Source: Clostridia bacterium (GTDB lineage: Bacteria; Bacillota; Clostridia; Acetivibrionales; DSM-2933). Taken from it: a stretch of DNA of 64,000 nt. The position numbers were made by a program, and so were the translations under genes. A model generated the notes under the pieces. It was not told the DNA's origin, did not search any database, and worked only from the letters and a program-made list of their open reading frames with translations. Of this stretch, positions 14,263-58,838 are shown piece by piece. The stretch is taken from positions 62,486 to 126,485 of the forward strand of contig JAOAEJ010000090.1 in assembly GCA_026416815.1 (NCBI GenBank), written 5' to 3'. Each line of letters begins with the position of its first letter. Position 1 is the first letter of the stretch.

Positions 14263-14365
14263 AGTGCCTTGTAACAGAATTCGTTTCTAGAGGCAAGGCA
14301 CAACAACTAAGGAAGTGTATTTTTAACATTTGATTGACTAGAAACTTGTAATGCTAAAAAGCACT
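14263..14365 (+). repeat. 103-nt double-hairpin interspersed element, family 1, copy A
   Basis: AGTGCCTTGTAACAGAATTCGTTTCTAGAGGCAAGGCAC...AGTGTATTTTTAACATT...AATGCTAAAAAGCACT. About 90% identical to the reverse complement of 47843..47945 and similar to 42045..42145. It sits ~200 nt upstream of the FN3 gene. Confidence 0.8.
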
Positions 14366-14571
14366 GGCCAACTTAATAAGGCTCTGCCAAAATACAAGAG
14401 GTTCAGCATGTTGATTGCTAAATTATTTCGGCGTTCTTGTGTTGAAATTTATAAAAGCCACCTTGCGGGTTTATTACTGCACTGCCTTAAATACAAAAGA
14501 TATGCAAAACGAAGGTATCCGATTTTTAACTAACCGGGAACTGCGTAATGCAAACTTAAGGAGGTTAATTA

Positions 14572-16655
14572 TGAAAAAACGGTTTTACAGATTAGCCTGG
14601 ATAACCTTATCGGCTTTACTACTGACATCAGTAGCTCTTCCACTTGGTGCAGCCAATGTTTATGCTGCGTCCTCGGGAATTATTCCAACCGATACAGCTC
14701 CATACTATGAGGACAGCTTACCTAGCGGCATAAAGATTCATAGAATAGAGCTCGACATTCCCTTTATCAAGCATAGTATATCTCTAACCCTTAATCCCTT
14801 TGCCGAAGCTTCCCCTGCTCGTTTATCGTCGGGGAGTACTATAGGGATATCCCCTATAGCTAGAATAGCTATGGCGCTGTTACCTAAAAACGCATATATG
14901 TATACACAACCCAGACAAAATAACGGTAACTTGGTACACTTTATCAAAGGTCTTACATTTGGGGTCTATTATTCATACAACGAGTCCCCAACATTAAGAG
15001 TTATATCTCCTTTACAAAATCGAACCGAATCATCTACTGTGTCTTCCTTTACACCGGTAATATCGGTATTAGATCCGGATAACGATCAATTAGTTTGCAA
15101 ATATTATTTAGATCATAAAAAAACACCGGAAGAATTTAAAATTGTTGAAGATACACAAACTGTTAAAATAGTACGTTTTAATACTATTAACCTATCCAAT
15201 GGCCGTCATACTTTAAAATTTGAGATAAATGACGGCTCTGAAACGATATCTAGGGAAATAGTTGTGTCGGTCAATGGGGAAGTACGTTCGGCAGTATCGG
15301 GAGATACAGACGTTCCTGTAGATAGCGCCAGCCCTTCAGCTCCTGTTATAAAGCCAAATACCCTTTTAACTAATGCCGAAAACATAACAGTAGATATTGA
15401 AAGCGGCCGAGATGGAGAATCGGGAGTAAACAGAACAGAATACCAGCTAACCGGCCCTGAGCAAAAGGTCTGGACCCGGTATAACGGCCCATTCAACATA
15501 ACAAGCGAAGGAGAAACAACAGTATTCGCCAGAACAGTTGATAATGCTGGAAATGCGAGCAGCATAACATCAGTGGCTGTAAAAATCGATAGAACAGCAC
15601 CTCCCGCACCAAATCTAACAGTAGATACAACAAGCCTCACAAACAAAGATGTTAACCTAACAATAGACAACTGGGCAAATGCGGAAATAGTAGAGTACAG
15701 GATAGATAACGGTCTCTGGCAGATACACACAGTAAATCCTACTTTAATATCCCAAAATTGCCTTGTGGAAGCTCGCTGTGCTGATATAGCCGGTAATTAC
15801 TCAGCTATAGCCAGCTTAAGAATTGCAAACATCGATAAAACACCCCCAACACAGCCGTCTAACCTCAAGTTGGAGACAGTTTCAGAAACATCAATCTGGT
15901 TTACATGGGAAGCCTCCAGCGACAATACAAAGGTAACGCATTATGAGATTTACCGTGATGGTGTGAGGCTGACTGCAACAACAGCGACATTACTTAACAA
16001 TACAGGCTTGATACCGGGGAAAACCCATGAATACTCCGTAAGAGCAGTTGATTCATTGGGCAACTTATCGGACGAAAGCATTAAAATTTCCGCCTCTACA
16101 CTTCCCGATACACTCTCCCCATCGGTACCGACAGCTATACAGGTCGATGGTGTAACCGAATCAACAGCCACTATATCCTGGCAGACCTCAACGGATAATT
16201 CAAGGGTAAGATACTATGAAATTTACCGGGACGGGGCAAAGGTAGGTACCTCAATTACAACAAGCTATACCGTAACAAGGCTTTTACCGGGTACTACCTA
16301 TAAAATCAGCCTAAAAGCCTGTGACCTCTCAGGTAATCTTTCGGATATGAGTACAGAAGCTTATGCGACTACCTTATCCGATACTCAAACTCCCTCCACT
16401 CCTGAGCAGCCAACAGCGTCATCTATAACCGAAACCTCAGTTATACTAACCTGGCTGCCGTGTACAGATAACGTGAAGGTAAAGGGTTATGAAATTTACC
16501 GCAACGGAATCAGACTAAAAGCAACAAGCATACCGACGTTGACCGTCACTGGCTTACTGCCGGGCCAAACCTATAGCTTTACTGTTAAGGCTTTTGACGA
16601 CTCGGGAAATACATCTGCCGAGAGCACCGCAGTGAGCGTCACAACCCTGAAGTAA
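14572..16655 (+). CDS. Secreted cell-surface protein with four C-terminal fibronectin type-III repeats
   Basis: The ORF track starts at 14415. I place the start at ATG 14572 (MKKRFYRLAWITL..., signal peptide ending ANVYA) because GGAGG lies upstream. The FN3 repeats are ~85 aa each (WxxSxDNxxVxxYEIYRDG). Confidence 0.75.
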
Positions 16656-16708
16656 TAAATAAAGCAGATAGAGGCGATCACATTATCTACCTCTATCTGC
16701 TTTACCCT

Positions 16709-19378
16709 TTAAATATTTTGTCCTCTTACTCTTATATTGTGAATTACTTTCCCTAGTTCTACTATTGGAATTATAGCCAGTGCAGCTGCTACAACAATCA
16801 GCCATTGCTGCATATTTAACTGCTTTACCCTGAATATATCATTCAGGAACGGAATAATTATTACCATTAACTGAAGAAGTGCCGATACAGCAATTGCACC
16901 AATCAGATACATATTGGTAAACAGCCCAATGGTTAACAAAGATTTGGTATTTGACCGTACATTCAGCGAATGGGTCAGCTGTATAAGCCCCAGGGTGGCA
17001 AAGGCCATAGTTATAGCTATATCCTGTGTATAGAGCCTTATTCCTATATAGTAAGCTAAGAGAGTAATAATACCTTTTAATATTCCCTGATATACTATAC
17101 TTACACCTACACCCTCCGAGAAGAAACTGGCATTAGCCTTTCTAGGCCTATTTTTCATTATATCTTTTTCTGCTTTCTCCACTCCTAGTGCCAATGCCGG
17201 TAAAGTATCTGTGACAAGATTTACCCACAGTATGTGGATAGGCATTAGTATTGTCCAGTTCAGCATAGTCGCAATAAAAAGTGTTACTACCTCTCCTAAG
17301 TTGGAGGATAATAAAAACTGTATGGTTTTACGTATATTACTGTAGATTTTTCGCCCTTCCTCCACAGCTACAACTATAGTTGCAAAGTTATCATCGGCTA
17401 ATACCATATTCGATACTCCCTTTGCAACATCAGTGCCGGTTATTCCCATACCTATACCTATATCCGAAGCCTTTAATGCGGGAGCGTCGTTTACACCATC
17501 CCCCGTCATTGCAACAACTTTCCCCTTCTTCTTCCATGCCTCTACTATCTTTACCTTATGTTCCGGGGCTACCCTGGCATAAACCGAGTACTTTTCCACA
17601 CTTTTTTCAAAGCGCTCATCGGGGATAGCATTTAACTCACTTCCAGTTATTACTTCACTGTCGTCCTTTATAATATTGAGTTCCTTCGCAATAGCCGCTG
17701 CCGTATCCCTATGGTCACCGGTTATCATAATGGCTCTAATGCCTGCCTCCCTACATACCCTTACCGCTTCTTTAGCTTCCTCTCTCGGAGGGTCTATCAT
17801 ACCCACAAGTCCTGCAAATATAAGTTCACTTTCAACATGCTGCGAAGTAACCTTCTGCGGAATTTCACCAATATCTTTAAATGCTACTGCAAGTACCCTT
17901 AAAGCTTTACTGGCCATACTCTTGTTCGCCTTAGCAACCGCATCCGACAATTCTTTAGTTATAGGCTTTACTTCTCCATTGACGAATACACCGCTGCATC
18001 TTTCCAGTAGTATGTCAGGAGCTCCTTTGGTCATAGACCTCAGCTTCCCGTCCACTTTATTTATAGTAGTCATGAGCTTTCTCTCGGAATCAAAGGGTAT
18101 CTCTTCTACCCTGGGATTTTCCTTATCCATCACATCCTTGTAAATGCCTTTATCTACAGCAAAATTGACTAACGCGGTCTCGGTAGGGTCCCCTATAGCA
18201 CTAAGGCTATGCTTATCCACCCTTTTAACCTTGGAATCATTACACAAAACCATCGCCTGAATAAATGCCTTAAAGCTGCTGTTTTCAACCGAAACATCCT
18301 CAACTTTTCTGAGGCTCCCGTCAACATATACCTCTTTCACAGTCATTTTATTTTGTGTAAGGGTACCGGTCTTATCGGAACATATTATTTCAGTACTTCC
18401 AAGTGTCTCAACCGCCGAAAGCTTTCTTATAATCGCATTTCTTTTAGCCATTTTCTGGACACCCATTGCCAGTACTATGGTTATTACTGCAGGGAGCCCT
18501 TCGGGTATAGCTGCAACTGCAAGGCTTACGGCGATTAAAAACATTTCAAAATAACTTCTCCCTTGGAGTATTCCTGCAAGAAAAATAAATATAGATATTA
18601 TAACTATGCCTATAGTCAGGTACTTGCTCATTTCATGCAGCTTTCTTTGGAGAGGAGTCTGTTTATCTTCAGCTTTTGAAATATGCGCGGCAATTTTCCC
18701 TACTTCCGTCTTCATACCTATAGCTGTAACAACTCCCATTCCTCTCCCATAGGTTACGCTACTGCTGGAGTAAGCCATGTTTCGCCTATCACCTGTTACT
18801 AAATCAGCCTTCTCAAGCTTTTCGGTCATTTTTTCAGCAGGAACCGATTCCCCCGTAAGGGCTGCTTCTTCAATCTTTAAGCTTGCTACCTGAAGTAGTC
18901 TCATGTCAGCTGGCACAATATCGCCGGCTTCCAGCAAAACTATATCCCCCGGAACTATCTCCTCGGTTTTTACCTGCTTTACCTCTCCATTTCTTCTAAC
19001 CTTTACAAATGGTGATGACATCTTTTTAAGAGCTGCAAGTGCTTTTTCAGCTCTGCTCTCCTGCATGACCCCAAGTACTGCATTGATTATAACTACCGTA
19101 AGGATAATAGCAGTATCTGCAAGCTCGTGCATAAAGCCTGATATTGCTGCCGCTACAAGTAGGATTATAACCATAACATCCTTAAACTGCTCAAGCAGCA
19201 TTCCCAGAACAGTCTTTCGTTCGCCTTCCTCAAGCTCGTTTTTTCCATAGGTTTGAACTCTTCTACCGGCTTCCTCCTCAGCTAGCCCATCTATGCTTGT
19301 ATTAAGATACCCCAGAACACTTTTCTCATCCTGTGTATGAAAGAGCATATCGTTTAATGGGCGGTTCTCTTTTGACAT
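16709..19378 (-). CDS. P-type ATPase, Ca2+-transporting (type IIA)
   Basis: DKTGTLT phosphorylation motif, TGDN and GDGVNDAP motifs. AAAGGAGGAA RBS. Confidence 0.85.
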   Translation of the reverse strand: MSKENRPLNDMLFHTQDEKSVLGYLNTSIDGLAEEEAGRRVQTYGKNELEEGERKTVLGMLLEQFKDVMVIILLVAAAISGFMHELADTAIILTVVIINAVLGVMQESRAEKALAALKKMSSPFVKVRRNGEVKQVKTEEIVPGDIVLLEAGDIVPADMRLLQVASLKIEEAALTGESVPAEKMTEKLEKADLVTGDRRNMAYSSSSVTYGRGMGVVTAIGMKTEVGKIAAHISKAEDKQTPLQRKLHEMSKYLTIGIVIISIFIFLAGILQGRSYFEMFLIAVSLAVAAIPEGLPAVITIVLAMGVQKMAKRNAIIRKLSAVETLGSTEIICSDKTGTLTQNKMTVKEVYVDGSLRKVEDVSVENSSFKAFIQAMVLCNDSKVKRVDKHSLSAIGDPTETALVNFAVDKGIYKDVMDKENPRVEEIPFDSERKLMTTINKVDGKLRSMTKGAPDILLERCSGVFVNGEVKPITKELSDAVAKANKSMASKALRVLAVAFKDIGEIPQKVTSQHVESELIFAGLVGMIDPPREEAKEAVRVCREAGIRAIMITGDHRDTAAAIAKELNIIKDDSEVITGSELNAIPDERFEKSVEKYSVYARVAPEHKVKIVEAWKKKGKVVAMTGDGVNDAPALKASDIGIGMGITGTDVAKGVSNMVLADDNFATIVVAVEEGRKIYSNIRKTIQFLLSSNLGEVVTLFIATMLNWTILMPIHILWVNLVTDTLPALALGVEKAEKDIMKNRPRKANASFFSEGVGVSIVYQGILKGIITLLAYYIGIRLYTQDIAITMAFATLGLIQLTHSLNVRSNTKSLLTIGLFTNMYLIGAIAVSALLQLMVIIIPFLNDIFRVKQLNMQQWLIVVAAALAIIPIVELGKVIHNIRVRGQNI

Positions 19379-19458
19379 ATTTCTATTCCTCCTTTAAAAG
19401 ATACCAATAAACTATGTATATGCTGCAATGAGGATTTTGATTTTCCTTATAAAATCTA

Positions 19459-19560
19459 TGTAGATAGTTTAGGTTGAAACTGATTTTATTCAGCCAAGCA
19501 AATCGAACTTATCATAGCTCATTGCCTAGCTGGAAATCACTAAGTTCAACCTAAACTATC
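19459..19560 (+). repeat. Nested-hairpin interspersed element, family 2, copy F1
   Basis: Outer 18-bp inverted repeat TAGATAGTTTAGGTTGAA/TTCAACCTAAACTATCTA encloses a conserved core ...TCGAACTTATCATAGCTCATTGCCTAGCTGGAAATCACTAAG shared with 29621.., 37846.. and (reverse complement) 33621... Confidence 0.75.
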
Positions 19561-19725
19561 TATATTACAGCGTATATAGTAGTTATAGACAAAAATCTTA
19601 TCCTGCCACATTACATAATAGTTTCTTCCTTTTTATCGAAATTTATTTATAATGCAAAAAGACCCTGTAGCCAGCCTTGAAAGGCCGATTACAAAGTCTT
19701 TTAGATAACCACTGTTAGTTTTTAT

Positions 19726-21111
19726 TTAGAAAAGAATATCCACTATAAAATATGACACTATAGCAATTGCTGCGGCTATTGCCGTAATAACCTTATCCTT
19801 AATCGTAAGACTTACTCGGCTTCCGCTACGCTTAATTATTCCAAAGTTTTCAACAGTTGCCGCCGCAGCCCATCCCAATACAGGATTTAAAGCTATGCCT
19901 ACTACTATACATATAGCAGCTACTATCGAGTCCTCAGCATTTTTTACTGCATTTAGCCCAACTTCCATAAGCGGGATATATACCCCAAAAATCAACACCA
20001 GCCATATTAGCGGCGGGAAAACTGCAATGTCCAGAGGCGCTCCCAGTATACCAAATAGTATTCCAACCACTCCAAGCAGTAGAGCGCTCCCGCCTATAGG
20101 TCTTCTCACCGTTGCTAAGGGGATCATAAAGCTTCTCCATACAGCCGAAGTTTGTGCCCCTCCTAAAAACGCTCCAATAAGGTTCCTTAGAGATACTGCA
20201 ATAAAAGTTGAATTCATATCAAATACAGCTTTCTCTGAGCCTTCACCATAGTTTGCTTCCTGTATGGTTCTTATAGCCAAAGCATCGGTAGGCCACATAA
20301 CTATCGCCAGCAGCGCAAAAGGCAGAGCTCTAATAAAGTTTTCCACACTTATACCCCAGCCTATGCCCCATACCTTATTCCACCAAAAATCCGGATTAAT
20401 TGTAGGAAACGAGATAGACGTACCTATAGATGGATAAATATTAAACACTGCTGGTATTATTAGGGCTGCAAGTGCACATGAAGGTATCATCAGCCACCTT
20501 ACACCAAGCCTGCTTAATATTACAAAAAGTATGAGCCCGACTATGATCAAAACTTCAAACAGCATATAAGTATTATTTTGCACAGCCCACCCCTTTAAGC
20601 TTTGCAGCGAGCTGCTTATGCCCATAAACCCGAAAAGTAATATAATACCGCCTTTTGTCCCAGGGCCGTTTATCTTTACTATTGCCTCTATGTACCCCGA
20701 TATGGATATCAAAAATCCAATTACTCCTATAAGTATACCTAGAGCCAAAGGATGCACACCTGCTGCAGCCATGACCGGAATAAGCGAGACAAGTGGAGCA
20801 AGCGTTCCCGGAGGAGCCATATAAGGATTTAATAATGCACAAAATATTATTGTTATAATACTTCCTACTATGATTTCCAACCTGACATTTTCAATAACGA
20901 ACGCAGGATTATCTATGCCCAGTGCTTTAGCCCAAGCGACAGCAAATGCCGCAGCCATAGCAACCTTACCGATAGCACCGGATAACGCAGGAATAATGTC
21001 CTCAAATCGCAGGTTATAATTTATCAAAGGAAAATTTACAGCCCATTTCTTAGGGCTATATGCTATCAAATCCTCTTGCAACGTCTCTTGTCGTAATGTA
21101 TCCTTCCTCAA
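19726..21111 (-). CDS. NCS2-family permease (AzgA/PbuG-like purine/xanthine-uracil permease), divergent
   Basis: 461-aa polytopic protein. Its C-terminal half follows the PbuG pattern (GAFLGGAQTSA...GGSALLLGVVG...APL). Confidence 0.45.
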   Translation of the reverse strand: MRKDTLRQETLQEDLIAYSPKKWAVNFPLINYNLRFEDIIPALSGAIGKVAMAAAFAVAWAKALGIDNPAFVIENVRLEIIVGSIITIIFCALLNPYMAPPGTLAPLVSLIPVMAAAGVHPLALGILIGVIGFLISISGYIEAIVKINGPGTKGGIILLFGFMGISSSLQSLKGWAVQNNTYMLFEVLIIVGLILFVILSRLGVRWLMIPSCALAALIIPAVFNIYPSIGTSISFPTINPDFWWNKVWGIGWGISVENFIRALPFALLAIVMWPTDALAIRTIQEANYGEGSEKAVFDMNSTFIAVSLRNLIGAFLGGAQTSAVWRSFMIPLATVRRPIGGSALLLGVVGILFGILGAPLDIAVFPPLIWLVLIFGVYIPLMEVGLNAVKNAEDSIVAAICIVVGIALNPVLGWAAAATVENFGIIKRSGSRVSLTIKDKVITAIAAAIAIVSYFIVDILF

Positions 21112-29577: not shown

Positions 29578-29620
29578 TTAAATCACCCACCTCTAAAGAC
29601 AACGAAGTCCAAACCAGGGA

Positions 29621-29690
29621 TTCCCAGCTAGGAAAATCGCATTTACCACAGCACATTGTCTAACTGAAAATCACTTAGTTTACATCAAAC
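29621..29690 (+). repeat. Family 2 element, degenerate copy F2 (core only)
   Basis: TCCCAGCTAGGAAAATCGCATTTACCACAGCACATTGTCTAACTGAAAATCACTTAGTTTAC aligns with the F1 and F3 cores but has mismatches in the inner stem and lacks a long outer inverted repeat. Confidence 0.55.
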
Positions 29691-29823
29691 TACCTTTAAT
29701 ACTATTGTATTTTCTGTGCCCTAATGGTGTTACACTTTCGGTGGGTTAGCAAAGGTGACTTTGCCATTTTGTTTGCATATGTTCGTCTGTGAGAGCAAGG
29801 AATCCTGAAACGCATATAAGTTC

Positions 29824-37845: not shown

Positions 37846-37979
37846 TTCAAGCCCGGATTTAAAGATAAGTCACTGCAAAAGTGTTTTTATCCAGTTAGGC
37901 AAGTCGCACTTACCACAGCTCATTGCCTAACTGGATAACACTAAGTTCACACTGACTTATCTATAACCCGGGCTTGAAT
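37846..37979 (+). repeat. Family 2 element, copy F3 (best-preserved)
   Basis: Outer ~30-bp inverted repeat ATTCAAGCCCGGATTTAAAGATAAGTCACTG/CACTGACTTATCTATAACCCGGGCTTGAAT. Middle stem AGTGTT/AACACT. Inner perfect 12-bp stem CCAGTTAGGCAA/TTGCCTAACTGG with a 20-nt loop. Confidence 0.8.
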
Positions 37980-41843: not shown

Positions 41844-42005
41844 TACATCAACCTCCTGTTTTAAATACTTAAAGGGACTGTGACTATTTTATTCCATGCT
41901 GGCAAATTTGTCAAATTTATTGCCACATAGCTCCTTCTATTGAGATTATTTACCTTAAACTTATATATTATACTTCAGTTTGTAACTTTTTATGTATGCT
42001 GTATC

Positions 42006-42040
42006 AAAAAAAATTAAGCAGGTGCTTTTTAAACACCTGC
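42006..42040 (-). terminator. Rho-independent terminator (GCAGGTG...CACCTGC + U8) located 3' of element D
   Basis: On the minus strand the hairpin is followed by UUAAUUUUUUUU. Confidence 0.7.
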
Positions 42041-42044
42041 CTAT

Positions 42045-42145
42045 TGCTTTTTAACATTATAAAATTCTATTCACTCTAATATAAGAAATGCACTTCTTCT
42101 ATTGTTGTACCTTGTTGCTAGAAACAAATTCTATTACAAGGCAGT
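42045..42145 (-). repeat. Family 1 double-hairpin element, copy D, sitting between the stop codon of 42165..42554 and its terminator
   Basis: The reverse complement ACTGCCTTGTAATAGAATTTGTTTCTAGCAACAAGGTACAACAATAGAAGAAGTGCATTTCTTATATT...AATGTTAAAAAGCAA aligns with copy A. Confidence 0.7.
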
Positions 42146-42164
42146 AGTATAAATAACTCCGTTA

Positions 42165-42554
42165 CTACTGCTGCATTCCGCCTATTGGGCTATAGTACAT
42201 ATATGGGTTATACATATATGGGTTTGGCATATATGTATTAATCATTGCCGGGCTCATAGCTTGCTGGCTCATCATGCTGCCCGATCCAGCTGTATCCTGT
42301 CCGTAAAGCATAGGGCATTGCATATTAATAAGATAGGGACAGCACACAAATGGCATTTGTGGCATTGGGGTTACTCCCGGCATTTGCTGAGTCATCGGCA
42401 TTTGTTGAATATAAGGCAGCTGCATCTGTGGCATTTGTGGCATTGATTGCATTTGTGGTATTTGCTGCTGCATGTGTTGTCCGCATCCACAATCGTCATC
42501 ATACATAATATTTGCTGGCATTTCCTCGTTAACCATATCCCTTTCATCACTCAT
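42165..42554 (-). CDS. Met/Gln/Pro-rich low-complexity small protein (spore-coat-like composition)
   Basis: Repeats of QMPQMPQM and PYMYNPYMY. No domain. Confidence 0.45.
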   Translation of the reverse strand: MSDERDMVNEEMPANIMYDDDCGCGQHMQQQIPQMQSMPQMPQMQLPYIQQMPMTQQMPGVTPMPQMPFVCCPYLINMQCPMLYGQDTAGSGSMMSQQAMSPAMINTYMPNPYMYNPYMYYSPIGGMQQ

Positions 42555-46797: not shown

Positions 46798-47835
46798 ATG
46801 AAACTGATATTTGAATTTGTGCATAAAGTTTTCCCCGAAGTATCAAAGGAGCTCAACCGCTGGTCATCAATATGCTGTACTTCGGAAGATAAAGTACTGG
46901 GCAAACAAGCTTTGTCGAGTATCAGATTAAAGAAATTTCATGCTCAGGGTGGCAGCGTATATGCCCTTTATCCCGGCGTAGACATGGAAAGTACAATAAA
47001 ATTTATTGTTGCGCTACAGACCATTAGCGATTACCTTGATAATCTCTGTGATAGAGCCGGGGTCCAAAGTGAAGCTGCATTCCGTCAGCTGCACTATTCA
47101 ATGCTGGACGCAGTTGACCCGGAACGCAGTATTAATGATTATTATTTCTTTTATCCGTTTCAGAGGGATAATGACTACCTCAGGAGGCTTGTTGAGGAGT
47201 GCAGAAGTCAAGTAAGCAAAATTCCTTCCTATAATAAGGTAATTGAACCTATAAAAAAATATATTATGATGTATTCCGATTTGCAGACTTATAAACATTT
47301 GCCCCATGACATAAGGGAAAAACGTATGCTTGAATGGTCGCGAAGCTACCTTGGGCAATATCCCGAAATATCCTGCTGGGAGTTTTCAGCGGCCACCGGC
47401 TCTACTCTCGGCATTTTTGTATTGGCGGCGGCGGCTCACGATCCATACCTTACTACTGAAGACGTTATGTGTCTTGAAGCTGCATATTTCCCGTGGATAT
47501 GCGGCCTGCACATTCTCCTTGACTACTATATAGATTCCCAGGAAGATATGAAGGAGGGTGACTTGAATTTTACTCACTATTATGACAACTTAAAGCAGTG
47601 TGAAGAAAGGCTTTGTCTATTTATTGAACGCTCTCTGGAAAATTGCATGAAATTGCGATACCCAAAGTTTCATACTACTGTTGTAAAAGGCCTTCTTGCC
47701 ATGTACTTGTCTGACCCTAAGGCACTATTCGGTTTAAACAGACTTGCCAGTTGGAATCTAATCAAAAATGGGGCCCATGGTACCACCCTTTATTACAGGC
47801 TATGCAGATTGCTTAGATTCGCAGGAGCACTTTAG
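46798..47835 (+). CDS. DUF2600-family protein (YtpB/tetraprenyl-beta-curcumene synthase-like), tentative
   Basis: 345 aa. The N-terminal VFPEVSKELNRW pattern recalls YtpB homologs. Low confidence. Confidence 0.35.
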   Translation: MKLIFEFVHKVFPEVSKELNRWSSICCTSEDKVLGKQALSSIRLKKFHAQGGSVYALYPGVDMESTIKFIVALQTISDYLDNLCDRAGVQSEAAFRQLHYSMLDAVDPERSINDYYFFYPFQRDNDYLRRLVEECRSQVSKIPSYNKVIEPIKKYIMMYSDLQTYKHLPHDIREKRMLEWSRSYLGQYPEISCWEFSAATGSTLGIFVLAAAAHDPYLTTEDVMCLEAAYFPWICGLHILLDYYIDSQEDMKEGDLNFTHYYDNLKQCEERLCLFIERSLENCMKLRYPKFHTTVVKGLLAMYLSDPKALFGLNRLASWNLIKNGAHGTTLYYRLCRLLRFAGAL

Positions 47836-47842
47836 TGCAGCT

Positions 47843-47945
47843 AGTGCTTTTTAACATTACAAATTTCTAGTATATGAAATGTTAAAAATGCACTTCCTTG
47901 GTTGTTGTGCCTTGCCTCTATAAACGAATTCTGCTACAAGGCACT
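47843..47945 (-). repeat. Family 1 double-hairpin element, copy B (reverse orientation), in a convergent intergenic region
   Basis: Reverse complement is ~90% identical to 14263..14365. Confidence 0.8.
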
Positions 47946-48074
47946 ATTCTGCTATAGTCAAACCTGCTTATATAGCACAATGCCGGTGTGGTCCTCCCCT
48001 CCCACATCCGGCATCGTGTCACTGTTGAATATTTAAAGTACAAACGTACCAACAGCCTCTAATATATGTGTAAA

Positions 48075-50726: not shown

Positions 50727-52046
50727 CTATTGATTCATATAATCAGTTACTTCACGGTCTAATGATTTTGCTATCTGCTCCGGTGATTTTCCACCGCTTA
50801 CAAATTGATTTATGTGTTCAAGTAGTATCATATATACCTCATAATCCCAAACTTCATATCTCTCCGCTCTATTGATTATCCTATCTATTTTGTCAACCTG
50901 CTCTTTATCTACACCCTTCGAAAGGGCAGCCTGTTTTTTTGAATCTTCATACACCTTTTTATTTACCGGAATTATAATTTGGTAAAAATCATCCCTCCTT
51001 TGTTGTAACTCCTCCGAGAGCAACAATTTTATGTATTCAAATGCCTCTTTCTTATAAATGCTCTTGGCATTTATAGATACAGTAACAGGCTCTATGACCT
51101 GCACTGATTTCTTAGCGCTATATGTAGGGAAGGCAACAAAGTCCGTTCCCTGTCCCAAACTCCTGGCTGATAAACGATACGCTTCAAAGGGCCCTCCATT
51201 TATAGCTCCGATGTTGTTTATCATTACAGCTACATCATAAGTTAGGAGGTCGTCACCCGTATAACCTAATTCATTTTCCGGGCAAATCGCTCTGTTGATA
51301 TCCCTCTTGAAAGTCTTTAGCATATCTATAAATTCCGGCGAATTGAAGCTAGTCTTTTTATTTTCAAAATCAACGAAATCAACACCGCTATTTTTAAGTA
51401 ATTGTTCAACTCTTATCATCCACCCCGCGAATAGATATCTTGCTCTGTCCTTCACTTTAGGATTATATTCTCTGGCTACTTGCGTAAGATCGTTCCAAGT
51501 CCAGTTTTCGGTGTCTATTTTTATGCCGTTTTTTTTCATTATGTCCTTTGTAGTAGTCATAATGTCAGCCCTGAAGGACAGGGGAACGAAGTATCTCTTA
51601 CCTTTGTAGACACCGCACTCCATTACTTTTTCATTATAATCAGCCATATTGAAGCTCTTATCTGAGGCTATCAGCCCATTTAAGTCTTCAAGTACTCCAC
51701 TCTCCATAGTCTTATATATGGAGTTAAAGCTCGATACAAAGCTGTTACCCATATCCATTATGATGTCCGGGCCTTGCCCCGACATCAATTCGGTTGTCAA
51801 TCTATTCCTAAATTGCTCATAATCTTCGAAGCTTGTCACCTTAATACTTGAGTCCTTATGAGATTCATTATACTTCACTAAGGCTGCTGACGTAAGTACA
51901 TCTTGGTTTTGGGTATACAGCTTCAGTTCAATCTTATGGTCATTCACCTTCTGCTTTTCTGCCTCTTTCACCTTATCCGAGCACCCTGTGCTGCCTATTA
52001 AAAGTACAGCAGTTACAAATAACGGTATAATCTTTCTTACTAACAT
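50727..52046 (-). CDS. ABC-type substrate-binding lipoprotein (family-1 extracellular solute-binding protein), paralog 1
   Basis: Start taken at the internal ATG (MLVRKIIPLFVTAVLLIGSTGCS), giving a lipobox. Paralogous to 62190..63530. Confidence 0.65.
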   Translation of the reverse strand: MLVRKIIPLFVTAVLLIGSTGCSDKVKEAEKQKVNDHKIELKLYTQNQDVLTSAALVKYNESHKDSSIKVTSFEDYEQFRNRLTTELMSGQGPDIIMDMGNSFVSSFNSIYKTMESGVLEDLNGLIASDKSFNMADYNEKVMECGVYKGKRYFVPLSFRADIMTTTKDIMKKNGIKIDTENWTWNDLTQVAREYNPKVKDRARYLFAGWMIRVEQLLKNSGVDFVDFENKKTSFNSPEFIDMLKTFKRDINRAICPENELGYTGDDLLTYDVAVMINNIGAINGGPFEAYRLSARSLGQGTDFVAFPTYSAKKSVQVIEPVTVSINAKSIYKKEAFEYIKLLLSEELQQRRDDFYQIIIPVNKKVYEDSKKQAALSKGVDKEQVDKIDRIINRAERYEVWDYEVYMILLEHINQFVSGGKSPEQIAKSLDREVTDYMNQ

Positions 52047-52106
52047 ACATTCACTCCCTCTACTTGCTGGTTTTTTTATTACAAGTATAATAATATCACC
52101 CAATTA

Positions 52107-52133
52107 GTCATATGATAACTGCCGTTAGTCATA
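52107..52133 (-). promoter_or_regulatory. GTCATA direct-repeat operator, site S3: two GTCATA copies spaced 21 bp
   Basis: AGTCATATGATAACTGCCGTTAGTCATAAG, about 60 nt upstream of the SBP start. Near-identical to sites at 58182.. and 63588... Confidence 0.6.
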
Positions 52134-52246
52134 AGAAAAGTAATAATATGCAAAAATGCCCAATAAATAAAGCAATAGCACCAGGAGTTAGCCTAGTGCC
52201 GTTTTAGCTTTTTATCTTACTGCGTCTATTTATTTATAAATAGAAT

Positions 52247-53149
52247 CTAAGCGCCTCTTTCAGCAATTTCTTCCGGCACAGCCAATACTATGCGCCCGTC
52301 GTTCAACTCTACCTTGACTTTATTCCTATTTTTAAGCCCCAACGCTTCAATATATTCCCTGGGTATTTGCAGCCGCCCTGACTTATCCAGAACCGCAAGC
52401 TCTACATGAGACTCCTCATCTGCTTCTCCCTTGGTATCTGACGCGATTTCAGCCAACTCTTCGGCATAGGATTTTTTTCTTATAAACTCACTGCTGGTAC
52501 GCCCGTCACGGATTGCCACCACTCTGTCCACCTCTCTGGATAGCTGCCTGTCATGGGTAACAATGATAATGGTAAGCCCTAAGGATTTATTTAGCTCCCT
52601 GAAAATATCCAGTATCAGTGCTGAAGTTTTGGTGTCTACTGCACCGGTGGGTTCGTCAGCTAACAGCAGTTTGGGATTGTTGGCAAGGGCTATTGCTATG
52701 GCAGTTCTCTGCTGCTCGCCCCCTGAAAGCTGGTACAATTTACTGTTTTGCCTGTGGGAAAGCCCTACCATATCTAATAATTCCTTTGCTCTCTCTCTTT
52801 TCGCCTTACCCGATAAAAGCATAGGAAGTTCTACGTTTTCAAGGGCTGTCAGGTAGGGTATGAGATTCCTTGCATTATTCTGCCATACAAAGCCTACTGT
52901 GTCCCGTTTGTAATTTATCAGCTGGGAGTTGGTAAATTTAAAAAGGTCTTTTCCATCTACCATAAGCTTACCTGCTGAGGGCTTATCCAATCCTCCCAGC
53001 ATGTTCAGAAGAGTTGACTTCCCGCTTCCGCTGTTGCCTATTATGCCCATTAATTCGCCTTGCTCTACTACAAGGTCCAGTCCTTGAAGAGCGACTACCT
53101 CTATATCAGCGGTTTTATATATCTTAACAAGATTTTCACAAGTGATCAT
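52247..53149 (-). CDS. MacB/LolD-type ABC ATP-binding protein with a C-terminal AbrB/SpoVT-like swapped-hairpin domain
   Basis: Walker A GNSGSGKST, signature LSGGEQQR. The C-terminal ~60 aa (GRLQIPREYIEALGLKNRNKVKVELNDGRIVL) resembles the AbrB/MazE fold. Confidence 0.7.
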   Translation of the reverse strand: MITCENLVKIYKTADIEVVALQGLDLVVEQGELMGIIGNSGSGKSTLLNMLGGLDKPSAGKLMVDGKDLFKFTNSQLINYKRDTVGFVWQNNARNLIPYLTALENVELPMLLSGKAKRERAKELLDMVGLSHRQNSKLYQLSGGEQQRTAIAIALANNPKLLLADEPTGAVDTKTSALILDIFRELNKSLGLTIIIVTHDRQLSREVDRVVAIRDGRTSSEFIRKKSYAEELAEIASDTKGEADEESHVELAVLDKSGRLQIPREYIEALGLKNRNKVKVELNDGRIVLAVPEEIAERGA

Positions 53150-53210
53150 AATTATGCCTCCTTTAGCTTTAAAGCTGTGGGTAGTTTACTATAACATTGA
53201 AAATACTTTG

Positions 53211-53306
53211 CCACCACCCCTGCCCCTCCTCAAAGGAGCGAAGCTTTTGTTTTGCGGCAAAGCCGCAAGCAGGAGGGCTACACCCCCTGCACCCCCAATT
53301 TAAAGT
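53211..53306 (-). repeat. GC-rich ~60-nt conserved intergenic element, copy 2, between the two ATPase genes
   Basis: TTTTGCGGCAAAGCCGCAAGCAGGAGGGCTACACCCCCTGCACCCCCAATTTAAAGTT matches copy 1. It is preceded by a different, copy-specific hairpin. Confidence 0.6.
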
Positions 53307-53317
53307 TTCATAGTTAA

Positions 53318-54001
53318 CTAACTATGTTCAACTACAACCTGCCCGTCCTGCAAGGCGATTACCCGGTCTGCAAGCTCCATTATATTAGGATCGTGGGATG
53401 TCATCACTATTGTAAGCCCTTCCTTTTCCACCAAATCTCGAAATACCTTCATTACCTGCAGGCCCATATGGGTGTCCAATTCAGCTGTAGGTTCATCAGC
53501 AAAAATTATTCTCGGTTTATGAGCTATTGCCCTTGCAATAGCCACACGCTGCTGTTCACCACCTGAAAGCTCATGGGGACGGTGGTGCATACGTTTTTGA
53601 AGCCCAACAAAGGAGAGGCATTCTTCGGCACGTTCTTTTCTTGCCTTGGTGCTATAGCCTGCTACCCGCAGGCCAAATTCTACATTTTCATAAGCCGACA
53701 TTAGAGATATGAGGGCTACGGCTTGGAATACAAAACCCATCTGCTGCCGCCTCAGCTCGTCACGGCTTGTTTCATTGATACAGGCAATATCTCTGCCGTC
53801 CAGATAAATCTTCCCCGTACTAGGCTTATCAAGCGCCCCCAGCAGATTGAGCAGTGTCGTTTTTCCCGAACCGGAACGCCCCTTTAGGACAGTCAGCGTT
53901 CCGGAATTTATTGATATATTAATATCCCTGAGGGCATACACCGTTTCCCTTCCCGACTGAAATTGGCGGTTTATACCCTCTGTGCTGATTATCGGTATCA
54001 T
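53318..54001 (-). CDS. MacB/LolD-type ABC ATP-binding protein
   Basis: Walker A GRSGSGKTT, signature LSGGEQQR, Walker B IIFADEP. Confidence 0.8.
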   Translation of the reverse strand: MIPIISTEGINRQFQSGRETVYALRDINISINSGTLTVLKGRSGSGKTTLLNLLGALDKPSTGKIYLDGRDIACINETSRDELRRQQMGFVFQAVALISLMSAYENVEFGLRVAGYSTKARKERAEECLSFVGLQKRMHHRPHELSGGEQQRVAIARAIAHKPRIIFADEPTAELDTHMGLQVMKVFRDLVEKEGLTIVMTSHDPNIMELADRVIALQDGQVVVEHS

Positions 54002-54003
54002 AC

Positions 54004-56946
54004 TTATTCCTCCCCTAGCTTGATTGCCTGGTTTATATTAATTCGTGACAGCAGTGTTCTTAATGCCAAAAGCCCTATTATCATAGTAACCGTCACCAGC
54101 AGGTAAACATTCATACGGTCACTTGCAAAGGATACTACCTTAAAAGGTATAACCTGTGTAGAAGCATTAAATGCAATCTGGAAGAAAGGTACAAACAATT
54201 GGCTCGCAACCAAACCAATAATCACACCTATAATTGCTGCTGCACCGGAAGTAAGAGCCTGCTCCCATACCATCATGGAATTCAATTTCCTTACAGACAG
54301 CCCTATAGCACGGAATATACCAAACTGAAGTGTTCTGGCATTTATGGACAAAACCCAGTAAATAAGGAAGCCAAGGAAGCATATCATACCGCTTATAATA
54401 AATCCAAGGGTCAAGGCGCCATTAATGGCAAGGTTAAAGGGGTTATTTTTAAGTTTAATGACTTCCTGCCTTGCATTATCCAATCTCGTCACGCTGATAC
54501 CTTTTTCTTTTATTGTGTTGTAAATTGGCTCACTGCCTGCCTTAGGCTCTAGCTTAAGCCATACATCGTAAGGCTCCAGACGGGAATGATTTCGTATATA
54601 AGGAAGGTTCGCCACTACCAGCTTTGGGTCAGGCATACTAGGATTTAATTCCATATCTTTGTTGGGATTCCATGAAGGCCAGTAGTCCACAATGCCATAC
54701 ACAGTAAAACTTATCTTTTGGTTCTCCTCCCACATAATATGTATATAGTCACCTACCTTAAGCTTGGATGATTCACTCAGCGATTTGGAAATCAGACATG
54801 CGCTTGGCTCCACAGCCAGCAAGTTAATGTATTCATTAATATGGTGAGGCATTAAGCCATCCCTGTACCATACAACGTTTCCAAAGTCGTAAGGCTCTAT
54901 TCCCATCAATCTCGCTCCGGTAGGCCGCTGCCCACCTTCAGATATCACCGTCACATCATCTTTATTAAATACCTTTGCAGCATGCTTTACACCGAGCATT
55001 TGCGTATAAGGTAAAAATGACGGTTCAAAGTAGTTGGGTTTTTTATTAGGAGGAGGCTCTAAAGGTCTACGGGGCTTAACATCAGTTTGCCATAGTGTCT
55101 TAATCACCATATCACTGCCTATCGCATAATTAACTCTCTCCTCTGTATTGCTGTTAATTGTCCTTGCAGCAGTGGAACTAAAAAGTCCTATTGATAAGGT
55201 CATTACCATAAAAATCATTAAGAAATGATAGCTCTCAAGAGACCTTCCCACCTGAATCAAGGTAGCATAGACAGACGGCGGCCATAGCTTTCTCCCTATC
55301 CAATATATAGCTTTCACTATCAAAGGATATAGTCTTAGCGTCACCAGCCCTACACCAAGGATAAACATAGCCGGTACAAAGAACAGCATTGGGTCTATTT
55401 GAATATCTTTAGAGGCTGCCCCGGTAATCTTCATTACCTCCTGCCTCTTGCCAAAGGAATAATAGCCATATAGAGATACTGCAATCAATACCAGGTCAAT
55501 AAAGTACTTTTTCCAGAAGGGTGTAGATTTTTTTCTGGCTATGCTTGTTTTATAGCTTATTATGTTGGTTTTGCTGGCAAGATACGCCGGTATAAGCATG
55601 GTGAGTAATGATAGTCCAGCGGCCACAGCGGCGAAAGCATAGGCATTGGAGCTGACCGCTGCAGGAAGTGATGCTCTGCTGGTGAATTCAAGAAAGCCGT
55701 TTGAAGCTCCAAGAATTTTGCTTATGAGCATGCCTATCCACGGTCCTACAGCGAAAGCAATTCCACCGAGTATCAGACCCTCTATAAAATACCCCAGTAC
55801 AATCTGGAATCGGTTGGCCCCCCGGCTGTTTAGGAGCGCTATCTCATTTTTCTCTCTATCTATGATAAGCTTCGATACCATGAAAAGGTATAGAAAAAGC
55901 ATTATTATTACCGGAATATTTAAAGCCAGAAGTATAACGTTCAACTGATTTTCTTTCAAAAGAAAGTTGTTTATTATATCCATCGATGGAGCTTCTATAT
56001 CTACATTATTTCCTCCGATAATCCTTCTCAATCCCTTTGAAAAGCTCCTGTGCCCTCCCAGCATATCCCCTACACCTATACTATCTATTGCATGATAATC
56101 ATAAGCATACAGCCATTTCATGCTCTGCAGCATTGTAGGCTCCGTATTTATAAAATCCTTTTCCATCAAGCCCTCATCTATAAAAAAGCTTTTATCATAT
56201 ATAGTGGTTCCTGCAAGGGACCAGTACATGTTCTGATCATCCTTTATTGTGAAGACTCCTACAGGCTTAATCTTCACGCCTTCCAATTCCTCATACCTAT
56301 TGTCGATTAAAACGAATACCTCTCCCAGCACCATCCCCAGTTTCTTTAAAGCTTCTTCTGTCACAAGGGCTTCATATACTCCATTTTCAGCCTTATTAGA
56401 AGGTAATTTGCCGTCAAGAAGGTTGATGTTTTTATAGAGGCCACTCATAGATTCAATAGTGGCATATCTGCTCCCCCCTGTAGGACTCGTTTTTTTTGGG
56501 TCTTCGGAGTGCATACGTCTGATATCGGTGGAATAAGTATGGATTTGTTCTATTATCGGCAGTCCCAATCTTTGTTTGATATTCTCCTCTGTGTATTGTC
56601 TTGCTTCATTAACCGTTTTTAGCTTTCCTTTATAAAAATCCAAAACCTTCTCGTTTTTTATTAGTGACTGTTTTCGTGTCTTCAACTCGTATACAGTATT
56701 TGAAATACCGCTATAGTCCATAGATATATTTATCCTGTAGATACCGGGAAAGATATTATTTTCTTGCTGGTAATTCTCCAGGTCTCTTACTATCATCTTC
56801 TGCAAAGCTCCCTGGGTATAAATAGGGATACTACTTACTAATGCAACACAAATCACCAATCCTAGGAGAAGGCATAAAACAAGCCACAGGTTCTTTTTCA
56901 TTTTTCTAAGTATCATTAATAACAAAGCCATTATACCCCTCCTCAA
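54004..56946 (-). CDS. FtsX/MacB-type ABC permease with two FtsX domains and large extracellular loops (980 aa)
   Basis: About 10 TM in two 4-TM FtsX-like blocks, each preceded by a large extracytoplasmic domain. Confidence 0.7.
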   Translation of the reverse strand: MRRGIMALLLMILRKMKKNLWLVLCLLLGLVICVALVSSIPIYTQGALQKMIVRDLENYQQENNIFPGIYRINISMDYSGISNTVYELKTRKQSLIKNEKVLDFYKGKLKTVNEARQYTEENIKQRLGLPIIEQIHTYSTDIRRMHSEDPKKTSPTGGSRYATIESMSGLYKNINLLDGKLPSNKAENGVYEALVTEEALKKLGMVLGEVFVLIDNRYEELEGVKIKPVGVFTIKDDQNMYWSLAGTTIYDKSFFIDEGLMEKDFINTEPTMLQSMKWLYAYDYHAIDSIGVGDMLGGHRSFSKGLRRIIGGNNVDIEAPSMDIINNFLLKENQLNVILLALNIPVIIMLFLYLFMVSKLIIDREKNEIALLNSRGANRFQIVLGYFIEGLILGGIAFAVGPWIGMLISKILGASNGFLEFTSRASLPAAVSSNAYAFAAVAAGLSLLTMLIPAYLASKTNIISYKTSIARKKSTPFWKKYFIDLVLIAVSLYGYYSFGKRQEVMKITGAASKDIQIDPMLFFVPAMFILGVGLVTLRLYPLIVKAIYWIGRKLWPPSVYATLIQVGRSLESYHFLMIFMVMTLSIGLFSSTAARTINSNTEERVNYAIGSDMVIKTLWQTDVKPRRPLEPPPNKKPNYFEPSFLPYTQMLGVKHAAKVFNKDDVTVISEGGQRPTGARLMGIEPYDFGNVVWYRDGLMPHHINEYINLLAVEPSACLISKSLSESSKLKVGDYIHIMWEENQKISFTVYGIVDYWPSWNPNKDMELNPSMPDPKLVVANLPYIRNHSRLEPYDVWLKLEPKAGSEPIYNTIKEKGISVTRLDNARQEVIKLKNNPFNLAINGALTLGFIISGMICFLGFLIYWVLSINARTLQFGIFRAIGLSVRKLNSMMVWEQALTSGAAAIIGVIIGLVASQLFVPFFQIAFNASTQVIPFKVVSFASDRMNVYLLVTVTMIIGLLALRTLLSRININQAIKLGEE

Positions 56947-58136
56947 TTTAGAATTACGTTTTGTCCCTCACTCAAGCCCGATATAATCTCCACTTCCATT
57001 GGAGTTGTTATCCCCTCTTCTACATCAACTTCCCTCTTATTATCCCCTTCTAAAATCTGCACATATTTCTTCTCCAGTATCTGCTTTAGCGCCATTTTTG
57101 GGATTACGATGGTATTGTTCTTGCTCTTTATAGGTATTGAGATAACTATAGGGTCTCCCAGCTTCATTCTCTCCTCTAAGCCTTTAGCGTCTATAACAAT
57201 GGCTCCCTTATATGCTTCACCTGCATCCTCAGGTACATTATCCGGGGATAACACTACTTTTCCGGTATATTTCTTGTTTTCGTATGTAAGTTCCGCCGTC
57301 ATGCCCGTCTTTACTTTACCAACCTCCGCAGTAGGCGGTCTAAAATATATCTGTTTTTGCCTGGTATCAGCTACCCTGACAAGCTCTTTAAAAGCTATAA
57401 CCGTATCACCGTCTCTAATATCCTCTACAAAAACTACCTGTCCGTCCATCGGAGATACAAGCTGTGACTTTTCACGCTCATTTTTCAGCTCTTCAAGGGT
57501 TTCCTGTACATTAATCAAGTCCAGGCGGGCTGATTCCTTCTGCTTACTCATTTGCTCCAGCATTACCTTTGCTTTCTCCACAGCGTACTCCTGCACTGTA
57601 ATACCATTTTTCATTTCACGTATTGGAGGCCTTGAAGCTGCCGGAAGCTTCATAGAGGAGTCATACTCCTCTTTCATATTTTTTAATACCGTCTGCATAC
57701 TCTTTAGATCTATCCTTGCCGCTTCCTCCTGCTTCTCCAACTGTTCCAACTGAATCTGTGCCTTACTTACCATGTACTGCTGCTGTTTGATACGGCTTTC
57801 TATGTCACCTACATCAATTCGCGCCAGTACATCACCTTTTTTGACTACCTGCCCAATCCGAGCATCAACGCTTTTTATTCTTCTTCCTTCCTCTTTAAAA
57901 TACAGTGGAACCGATTTAATCGGTATTGCCTCTCCAGATCCTTTCACAGAATCCACGATGTCCCGCTTAGCAACCTTATAAAGCTCATATTTTTGCCTCT
58001 TAGGCTGTATAAGCGGCGGCGCCAGCGGCTTTTCTTCCTTTGGAAGCACCCCGCATCCGCTCATCAATCCCATTCCAACAGCTATAACACTTGCCACCCC
58101 TAATGTCCTGAAGCTTATTTTCTTATTCATTGACAT
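56943..58136 (-). CDS. HlyD/MacA-family periplasmic adaptor (membrane-fusion) protein
   Basis: Lipoprotein-like N-terminus (LMSGCG), coiled-coil hairpin and a beta-barrel C-terminus. Overlaps the permease gene by 4 nt. Confidence 0.75.
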   Translation of the reverse strand: MSMNKKISFRTLGVASVIAVGMGLMSGCGVLPKEEKPLAPPLIQPKRQKYELYKVAKRDIVDSVKGSGEAIPIKSVPLYFKEEGRRIKSVDARIGQVVKKGDVLARIDVGDIESRIKQQQYMVSKAQIQLEQLEKQEEAARIDLKSMQTVLKNMKEEYDSSMKLPAASRPPIREMKNGITVQEYAVEKAKVMLEQMSKQKESARLDLINVQETLEELKNEREKSQLVSPMDGQVVFVEDIRDGDTVIAFKELVRVADTRQKQIYFRPPTAEVGKVKTGMTAELTYENKKYTGKVVLSPDNVPEDAGEAYKGAIVIDAKGLEERMKLGDPIVISIPIKSKNNTIVIPKMALKQILEKKYVQILEGDNKREVDVEEGITTPMEVEIISGLSEGQNVILN

Positions 58137-58169
58137 CCCCCCTGTATGTTTCTCTATATGGTAAAATTA

Positions 58170-58224
58170 TCATATATGACGGTCATATGATAAGTAGCGC
58201 AGGTCATAAATAAAGTCATATATG
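58170..58224 (-). promoter_or_regulatory. GTCATA direct-repeat operator, site S1, upstream of the HlyD-permease-ATPase operon
   Basis: GTCATATGATAAGTAGCGCAGGTCATAAATAAAGTCATATATG. GTCATA copies at 58182, 58203 (+21) and 58215 (+12), plus an inverted copy at 58170..58180. Confidence 0.65.
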
Positions 58225-58730
58225 TTTAACTTCAGTACATTAGGAACAAAAAAGTAAAAGTAGTTAAAAAAAGTGCTGCAAGCCTTTTTTCATTTCTATA
58301 CACTTCCCATATTAGTAATAAGCGGCTCACATTCCAGCATTTAAAAAAGGTGCGGAAATACTTTAGTTTCTTATACTTTAGTTGGATAATTATGATATAC
58401 TTAATATAGGAAGATCAATATATATCCTATGGGAATGCCTAACTGTAGTAAGTAATGTAACCTATCAATGCATTCTCAAGCTGTCTGTATAAAAAGTGAT
58501 GGGTGGTGGTGATGCTATTTCTTATACCGCCGTTATAAATTGAGCGGTAATTCAGAATCTTGTGTATCTGCATACTATTGCACAGCTGTACGCCACACAA
58601 AATGCCTGCCTTTGTCTGCAATGTGATTACTGTCTATTAACATTTTGCAAGTGAACCCAGATTTGCATAATCATGTAAAATTTTCATAGGCGAAATCCCT
58701 ATAGCTTAAAGGGCTTCAGTATTTTAGACT

Positions 58731-58838
58731 AATGCCTCGTAACGTAATTTTTTTGTTAAGGTATGCAGAGCAATACTAATCAAGGAAGTGTATTTTTAAC
58801 ATTAGTAATGAATAGAAATTTGTAATGTTAAAAAACGC
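58731..58838 (+). repeat. Family 1 double-hairpin element, diverged copy C, upstream of the 1,071-aa secreted-protein gene
   Basis: The second hairpin AAGGAAGTGTATTTTTAACATT...TTGTAATGTTAAAAAACGC is nearly identical to copy A. The first hairpin has diverged. Confidence 0.6.

Follow-up and report, generated by a model that had tools for sequence, protein, structure and literature searches.

A dispersed family of inverted stem-loop doublets in uncultured Acetivibrio-like Clostridia, probably a MITE-like mobile element

Interspersed, hairpin-forming intergenic repeats of 100-155 bp, the bcr1-type repeats, occur in Firmicute chromosomes of the Bacillus cereus group, where they are regarded as similar to MITEs (transposable elements of the miniature inverted-repeat type) and are reported to have a TTTAT duplication. 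In Streptococcus pneumoniae, the 107-bp MITE named RUP is thought to be mobilised by IS630-Spn1 (PMC2229807). The DNA analysed here is a stretch of 64,000 nucleotides from a genome assembled as Clostridia bacterium (GCA_026416815.1, contig JAOAEJ010000090.1, positions 62,486 to 126,485), hereafter called the window, which contains four copies, named A to D, of an intergenic repeat of about 105 to 110 bp. The analyses revealed that this repeat is probably a small, non-coding and non-autonomous mobile DNA element of the MITE-like kind, and its nature as a selfish dispersed repeat is very likely when the MITE-like explanation and a variant moved by an HUH enzyme are taken together. It represents a new family of an already known element type, with some unusual architectural details.

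The bcr1-type repeats are unrelated in sequence to the present family, which has TA/CTAG junctions. RUP is the closest precedent for the mechanism favoured below. Both repeats are found in Firmicutes, measure about 107 bp, are non-coding with stops in all frames, lie between genes in multiple copies, and have terminal inverted repeats and a TA at the junction (PMC2229807). There is, however, no sequence similarity between them; RUP has a presumed partner in IS630-Spn1, whereas none was found for the present family, and the two ends of RUP pair into one long stem, whereas those of the present family fold into separate local hairpins, with a TA duplication that is here only inferred. The Correia/NEMIS elements of Neisseria are similar in size (roughly 100-155 bp), in terminal inverted repeats of about 24-26 bp and in TA termini, and they are often co-transcribed with neighbouring genes and able to alter transcripts (PMC2229807). 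They differ in host phylum and sequence, their transcripts form one long end-to-end hairpin, and their IHF site and promoter function are not shown for the present family. The closest architecture is that of the Caulobacter/Brucella intergenic repeat (CIR), in which the 5' and 3' sections are separate stem-loops plus a linker, and which is likewise strictly intergenic, with TA at the termini and a mobility mechanism that is not known (PMC2229807). In contrast to the long imperfect terminal inverted repeats of the present family, CIR has none, and it carries a CcrM GANTC motif that the present family lacks. Finally, the REP/BIME/REPIN sequences associated with RAYT share with the present family an NTAG followed by a stem-loop, inverted doublets and arrays, a position near stop codons, and a structure that is kept over sequence (PMC3733652). 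REPs are defined as 20-40-nt GC-rich palindromes tagged GTAG or CGTC (PMC3733652), whereas the present units are AT-rich, measure 46-55 nt, carry the tag CTAG and belong to a Clostridium-like Firmicute host, and no RAYT gene was found in the window or the annotated loci.

Copies in the window and anatomy of the repeat

Alignment of the four stretches, together with an nhmmer profile built from the four copies and searched against the 64-kb window, confirmed that A, B, C and D belong to one repeat family, as reported in the earlier note on this DNA, with E values of 1e-27 to 1e-35 and the positions given in Table 1; no further full or partial copies were found in the 64 kb with this profile at E < 0.05. 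Copies A and B were 90.6% identical over 106 nt, A and D were 80% identical over 100 nt, and D and B were 76% identical; copy C, which retains mainly the second hairpin, was 88.7% identical to A over the 53 nt of this hairpin. The left-arm 17-mer AGTGCATTTTTAACATT had six matches in the window with up to three mismatches (four of them inside the four copies), as compared to 0.68 expected, and six matches were reached in 0 of 100 shuffles. The two hairpins described earlier do fold in A, B and C, and in D the second of them is decayed.

Table 1. Positions of the four copies, their hairpin arms and the adjoining terminator in the window.
Feature	Position	Strand	Description
Copy A, profile match	14260-14371	+	nhmmer E = 3e-35
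Copy A	14263..14367	+	full length, AGTGCC...GCACTGG
Copy A, hairpin 1 arms	14264-14271 and 14294-14301		
Copy A, hairpin 2 arms	14314-14330 and 14350-14365		
Copy B, profile match	47838-47953	-	nhmmer E = 3e-35
Copy B	47841..47946	-	full length, TAGTGCC...GCACTAG
Copy B, hairpin 1 arms	47937-47944 and 47907-47914		
Copy B, hairpin 2 arms	47878-47894 and 47843-47858		
Copy C, profile match	58723-58845	+	nhmmer E = 7e-27
Copy C	58730..58841	+	hairpin 1 decayed, hairpin 2 intact
Copy D, profile match	42036-42152	-	nhmmer E = 2e-30
Copy D	42041..42146	-	full length, diverged (76-80% identity), hairpin 2 degraded
Intrinsic terminator abutting copy D	42005..42043	-	hairpin 42043-42015 plus T-run, read from sequence

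The anatomy of the element was derived from an alignment of 23 full copies with 116 columns. The tips AGTGC...GCACT, which had been described as short terminal inverted repeats, were nearly invariant, and the inverted repeat proved to extend beyond them as an imperfect repeat of about 30 nt: the first and last 30 columns were complementary in 66.9% of cells, as compared to 24-42% when slid, and the consensus of the first ~30 nt (TAGTGCCYCGTAACAGAATTAATTTCTAG) corresponds to the reverse complement of the last ~30 nt (CTAGAAATTAGTAATGTTAAAAAGCACTA). Each tip also pairs with an internal segment, resulting in two hairpins that begin at the first base of the element and end at its last base. Hairpin 1 has 8 bp followed by a short distal stem, and hairpin 2 has 16-17 bp with one bulged A; for both hairpins together, 91.7% of cells pair, as compared to 41-50% when slid. 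One stem-loop unit is present twice in the element, in diverged and inverted form, and a purine-rich linker joins the two units, which are AT-rich, 46-55 nt long and tagged CTAG. The sequence of hairpin 2 is almost invariant, whereas that of hairpin 1 drifts while its pairing is kept, with compensatory changes at three positions (16 cells) and the stem variants GCCTTG/CAAGGC, GCCTCG/CGAGGC, GACCCG/CGGGTC and GTTCTG/CAGAAC; more distant copies have wholly different hairpin 1 stems (GTTCTG/CAGAAC in locus L010, GTGATT/AGATCAC in L023). The element contains stop codons in each of its six frames and is non-coding, and the motif AGTGCNTTTTAACAT occurs in it three times, twice in direct and once in inverted orientation.

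Distribution among genomes and insertion junctions

Pattern scans of public genomes and metagenomes revealed at least 25 further copies, from no fewer than four further uncultured Clostridia of the Acetivibrio-like kind (ADurb.Bin419, OH_SBrB_95, Betzabe_MAG022 and others). A 24-nt degenerate pattern searched against GTDB genomes found full-length copies in two species known as metagenome-assembled genomes (MAGs), with four copies on three contigs of Bacillota bacterium OH_SBrB_95 and two copies in Betzabe_MAG022, and a two-arm pattern searched against metagenomes returned 21 stretches, 19 of which are genuine family members. The loci L015 and L025 were rejected as chance pattern matches to an unrelated palindrome, with an unrelated indel between them. 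The digester metagenome Ga0208826 has copies on nine different large contigs, one of which encodes a ThrC whose sequence is the same as in 'Firmicutes bacterium ADurb.Bin419' and shows 90% identity to the ThrC of Acetivibrio cellulolyticus. For the DUF2600 protein of the window, there is one identical database entry and the next relatives show 66% amino-acid identity. The distribution is patchy, since no copy was present in about 150 kb of DNA from relatives, of which 21.5 kb came from A. cellulolyticus. Plasmid and phage collections (blastn, distant mode) and viral contigs (pattern scan) gave no match to the element, and one short-read contig ends inside it, as expected of a dispersed repeat. 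Most likely, the repeat has spread through several uncultured cellulose-degrading Clostridia.

The copies group by host genome rather than by locus. The loci L002 (OH_SBrB_95) and L030 (ADurb.Bin419) are orthologous, with flanks 85-90% identical, and their elements lie at the same position within about 5 nt, in opposite orientations and with 76% identity, the L030 copy being 95% identical to paralogs of its own genome. Presence and absence were compared between species only. In the spacer downstream of thrC, the element is present in ADurb.Bin419 (three independent assemblies) and absent in two relatives; the thrC spacers of an OH_SBrB_95-like genome and of A. cellulolyticus contain long palindromes that are unrelated to the element and to each other (L031 11500-11807 and L032 11094-11420). 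Spacers after stop codons seem to be recurrent landing sites for hairpin repeats in this group. The spacer next to the YabE-like gene measures 321 nt with copy D in the window and 219 nt without the element in the syntenic relative L046, where the terminator directly follows the stop codon. At the thrC, cellulase and YabE orthologous loci, the spacers are too diverged for a base-exact empty site, and the absence of the element alone is shown. The polymorphic presence with target-site duplications that the earlier note had linked to a plain MITE was thus seen as presence/absence differences at the thrC and YabE sites, and the duplication (TA) appears only suggestively. A 420-nt indel between L042 and L043 was examined as an element insertion and rejected, as it corresponds to a small gene. 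Near the cellulase gene, an agrB gene was found bracketed by two copies in the same orientation, just upstream of the gene for a GH48-GH9-CBM3 cellulase (L007 2097-2961, identical in L034); in the relative L036, the cellulase gene is present, and both agrB and the copies are missing.

The junction consensus is palindromic (aC-TA-GTGC...GCAC-TA-Gt), and most copies have a TA next to GTGC...GCAC on the outer side of either end. Tandem or partial arrays occur in L016, L028, L010, L023 and L021, in which abutting units share a single TA, and truncated solo ends were also found. In five copies, the reading frame of the adjoining gene terminates at the TAG of the element's terminal C-TAG-TGC; this gene encodes an unknown protein (L004), a Dam methylase (L017), AgrB (L007a), PilZ (L020) or HrcA (L021). 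The Pfam domains of these five genes reach near the C-terminus, and the genes are therefore not truncated. In another four cases, a stop codon at this same end is overlapped by the copy or lies at a distance of 0-7 nt. The tetranucleotide CTAG is rare in the window, with 73 occurrences as compared to 221 expected. With regard to the arrays, that of L010 (1627-2108) comprises four head-to-tail units of a divergent subfamily (GTTCTG/CAGAAC) directly upstream of a pilin-like gene, and one of its units is interrupted at ~1700-1880 by a different element of ~180 nt with inverted ends of its own (CCTGTGAAATAGG...CCTATTTCACAG).

Mobilisation and alternative explanations

Several properties that characterise a MITE were found in the family, namely small size (below 200-300 bp), lack of coding capacity, terminal inverted repeats, dispersal in multiple copies (four in the 64-kb window, copies on nine contigs of a single metagenome and, in one MAG, four spread over three contigs) and presence/absence differences at orthologous sites. 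Of the two origins put forward in the earlier note, the MITE-like mobile repeat is the one supported, by multicopy, patchy and intergenic occurrence in both orientations, by long inverted ends with TA, and by arrays, clustering by genome and orthologous-site differences. Mobility would depend on a transposase encoded elsewhere in the genome, which would recognise the ends and move or copy the element, and insertion would take place into the TA of (C)TA(G)-like sites, which are rare and among which are TAG stop codons. Since the first base of the element is G and the last is C, insertion would rebuild C-TA-G at both ends; a targeted stop codon would therefore be preserved and new targets would be created, which would explain the tandem arrays sharing one TA. 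As proposed for RUP, the enzyme may be a TA-targeting DDE transposase of the IS630/Tc1-mariner type, and this type is favoured over the HUH/REP-like type; the enzyme, the TA duplication and any current activity are inferred from these patterns.

Several observations weigh against this explanation. Neither an autonomous element nor a transposase with matching ends was found in the window, the fetched loci, or the plasmid, phage and viral collections; the window contains no transposase or recombinase gene, and no separated left and right ends enclosing an open reading frame (ORF) were found in the window or the first 30 fetched loci. The compensatory changes that keep the pairing of hairpin 1 are not required by a plain DDE mechanism. 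The arrays are all direct (head-to-tail) and the five exact stop-codon junctions are all at the same end, an asymmetry that is not expected of a symmetric TA-targeting transposase. The TAG of the 3' side is better conserved than the TA of the 5' side. As to the TA duplication, the relatives are 68-90% identical with diverged spacers and offer no base-exact empty site, and TA/CTAG may be part of the ends.

The compensated hairpin 1, the direct arrays and the same-end stop junctions keep alive a second explanation, which is tentative and clearly the less probable one. The repeat would be of the REP/REPIN or IS200/IS605-derived kind, with CTAG-tagged stem-loop ends that an HUH (Y1) transposase recognises as folded single-stranded DNA and inserts 3' of CTAG with no target duplication. 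Both ends consist of NTAG followed by a stem-loop (CTAG-TGCC...GGCA and, on the other strand, CTAG-TGCTTTTTAACATT...AATGTTAAAAATGCA), and thus parallel the GTAG-tagged REPs in inverted doublets (PMC3733652). Hairpins conserved by compensation despite sequence drift, arrays that are exclusively head-to-tail, exact stop-codon junctions confined to one end, and the lack of a clear duplication besides the constant TA also point in this direction. It is thus possible, if rather doubtful, that the family is a previously undescribed Firmicute counterpart of REP/REPIN, a CTAG-tagged stem-loop doublet handled by an HUH/Y1-type or other enzyme acting on folded single-stranded DNA. Integration would then be directional and immediately 3' of C-TAG, TAG stops would be favoured as sites where insertion does no harm, and every new copy would bring with it the target for the following one, giving rise to head-to-tail arrays. 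The units are, however, longer than the 20-40 nt of REPs and carry neither a GTAG nor a CGTC tag, and the text of PMC3733652 has no match to Clostridi-, Firmicutes or CTAG. The orientation relative to gene direction, taken as a proxy for replication direction, is unbiased (10 vs 7), whereas single-strand transposons are typically biased; the flank consensus is palindromic (ACTAGT), as expected of symmetric double-strand integration, and no Y1 transposase was seen in the window or the annotated loci. The ends of IS608-type elements include roughly 10-20 nt of guide and cleavage spacing, for which the strictly terminal hairpins of the present family would leave no space. An IS200/IS605-derived element of the PATE/IS608 type proper was rejected, as set-back subterminal hairpins, guide tetranucleotides and no inverted ends would be expected, whereas here the hairpins are terminal and the ends are inverted repeats.

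The other origin considered in the earlier note, a cis-acting RNA or promoter module for secreted or cell-wall genes, finds no support in view of the diverse neighbours, variable spacing, unbiased orientation, symmetric mismatches and lack of an Rfam match, and it is very improbable that the repeat is a structured cis-regulatory RNA, acting as a 5' leader or within the 3' untranslated region (UTR), or a multicopy small RNA controlling such genes. Three of the four window copies do adjoin genes whose products are exported or associated with the wall, each of the four has a neighbour to which it can be read as sense, hairpin 1 shows compensatory changes, and copy B folds clearly better than shuffled controls (z = -4.4), whereas A, C and D are unremarkable (z = -0.35 to -1.7). 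Promoter-like hexamers lie just upstream of A and C, though they are no commoner there than in shuffled sequence, and a promoter module was rejected on this ground. Rfam gave no match to the element at gathering thresholds over the whole window, where the sole hit was an unrelated Moco riboswitch, and nothing relevant at E <= 10 around copy A. The copies and arrays examined were all intergenic (31/31); those between co-directional genes comprised 10 sense and 7 antisense cases and thus showed no orientation bias, and many others lie between convergent genes or are antisense to both neighbours. The distance to the next start codon ranged from ~18 to > 600 nt. Stem mismatches were 27 of the G.U type and 23 of the A.C type, the latter being G.U on the opposite strand, and thus favour neither strand. 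In other genomes, the copies adjoin housekeeping and regulatory genes, among others, that are unrelated and encode AgrB, a sigma factor, Dam methylase, ThrC (threonine synthase), HrcA, PilZ, a GH48-GH9 cellulase, glucan phosphorylase and a pilin, and because of this diversity the link with secreted or wall proteins seen in the window does not generalise. Tandem arrays, truncated copies and presence differences at orthologous sites also argue against an RNA. The hairpins were rejected as intrinsic terminators, as no U-run follows either of them.

Equally remote is a host module acting at the DNA level, whether bound at its many copies by a regulator or nucleoid protein, or inverted as a small switch by a site-specific recombinase: the three AGTGCNTTTTAACAT motifs per element and the opposite orientations at one orthologous site in two related genomes would fit it, but the orthologous copies are of different subfamilies (76% identity) and thus replacements rather than a flipped segment, the ~50 bp between the ~30-bp repeats are very short for recombinase inversion, no recombinase gene lies nearby, and a selfish element accounts better than a conserved regulon site for the patchy distribution, the arrays and the decayed copies. 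An invertible promoter switch was considered and rejected, as was an integron attC site, since the arms TTTTAAC/GTTAAAA only approximate the RYYYAAC/GTTRRRY cores and the neighbours are ordinary housekeeping genes with no cassette array or integrase.

Gene context, other repeats in the window and significance

Under the favoured MITE-like explanation, the window copies would be insertion products, whose effect on neighbouring genes, if any, would be incidental, and their position beside genes for secreted proteins looks coincidental. As a whole, the window is ordinary chromosomal DNA, in which the minus strand encodes 49 of the 54 ORFs. The gene context first described for A, C and D was recovered with two corrections. 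Copy A lies 204 nt upstream of the ATG at 14571 (not 14572) of a gene encoding an fn3/Ig-domain protein with a signal-like N-terminus, and is probably located in the 5' UTR of this gene; copy C ends 35 nt, and not 100-200 nt, before the ATG at 58876 of a gene encoding a DUF5057 protein, and is probably also in the 5' UTR. Copy D, as described, lies between the stop codon at 42165 and the terminator and about 200 nt (197) upstream of the gene for a DUF348/G5/3D (YabE-like) protein; it lies 17 nt past the stop of gene 42165-42554 (-), directly before the intrinsic terminator of that gene, and thus lies in its 3' UTR. Copy B is located in the spacer of two convergent genes, where the stop codon of the DUF2600 gene (46798-47835, +) precedes the 3' end of the copy by 5 nt.

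Two of these sites show further details. The terminator hairpin next to copy D (GCAGGTGTTTAAAAAGCACCTGC) holds a second, partial copy of the 3'-end motif of the element, TGTT(T)AAAAAGCAC, which reads TGTTTAAAAAGCAC at 42015-42043 (-), and an element fragment may have given rise to the terminator or been fused with it. Between the DUF2600 stop and copy B, the tip is duplicated at 47820-47846 (TAG-TGCAG-CTAGTGC), which could have been left by an insertion or excision that took place earlier at the stop codon.

The window contains other repeats as well. A second, unrelated family is present in three intergenic copies of ~108 nt (19458-19565, 29611-29698 and 37859-37966) that are 68-80% identical, each of them a long palindrome whose 44-nt arms are separated by 20 nt (TAGATAAGT...TTGCCTAACTGG); the family appears to be a further element of the MITE-like or foldback kind. 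A third family, GC-rich and ~85-105 nt long, has two copies (9016-9120 and 53221-53325) with 76-80% identity, whose hairpins are TTGCGGCAAAGCCGCAA and CAGGAGGGC...CCCCCTG, and it has no Rfam match at the gathering threshold. In addition, a direct-repeat motif, GTCATATGATAAGTAGC...GTCATAAG...GTCATA, occurs at 52106-52145, 58155-58221 and 63561-63627, in each case upstream of a transporter gene or operon of the minus strand (solute-binding proteins; HlyD/FtsX/ABC exporter), and may be a shared operator site. The Moco riboswitch at 5432-5550 (-) scored 77 bits (E = 6e-17) and lies upstream of a molybdate/tungstate-type ABC transporter operon, with moeA, mog-like and aldehyde:ferredoxin oxidoreductase genes adjacent.

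With this family, a MITE-like element is described for a group that has been little studied, the uncultured Acetivibrio-like cellulolytic Clostridia from digesters. The ~105-nt element and at least two other repeat families of the window break short-read assemblies, and such hairpin repeats could be mistaken for regulatory RNAs or terminators; their recognition as mobile repeats guards against over-reading a position beside secreted-protein genes. What is unusual in the family is the inverted stem-loop doublet, the structure preserved by compensation, and the terminal TAG that doubles as the stop codon of an intact gene in five copies. The mobilising enzyme, if identified, would show whether selection favours TAG stops as safe harbours, and whether the hairpins have a role in transposition or at the ends of host mRNAs.

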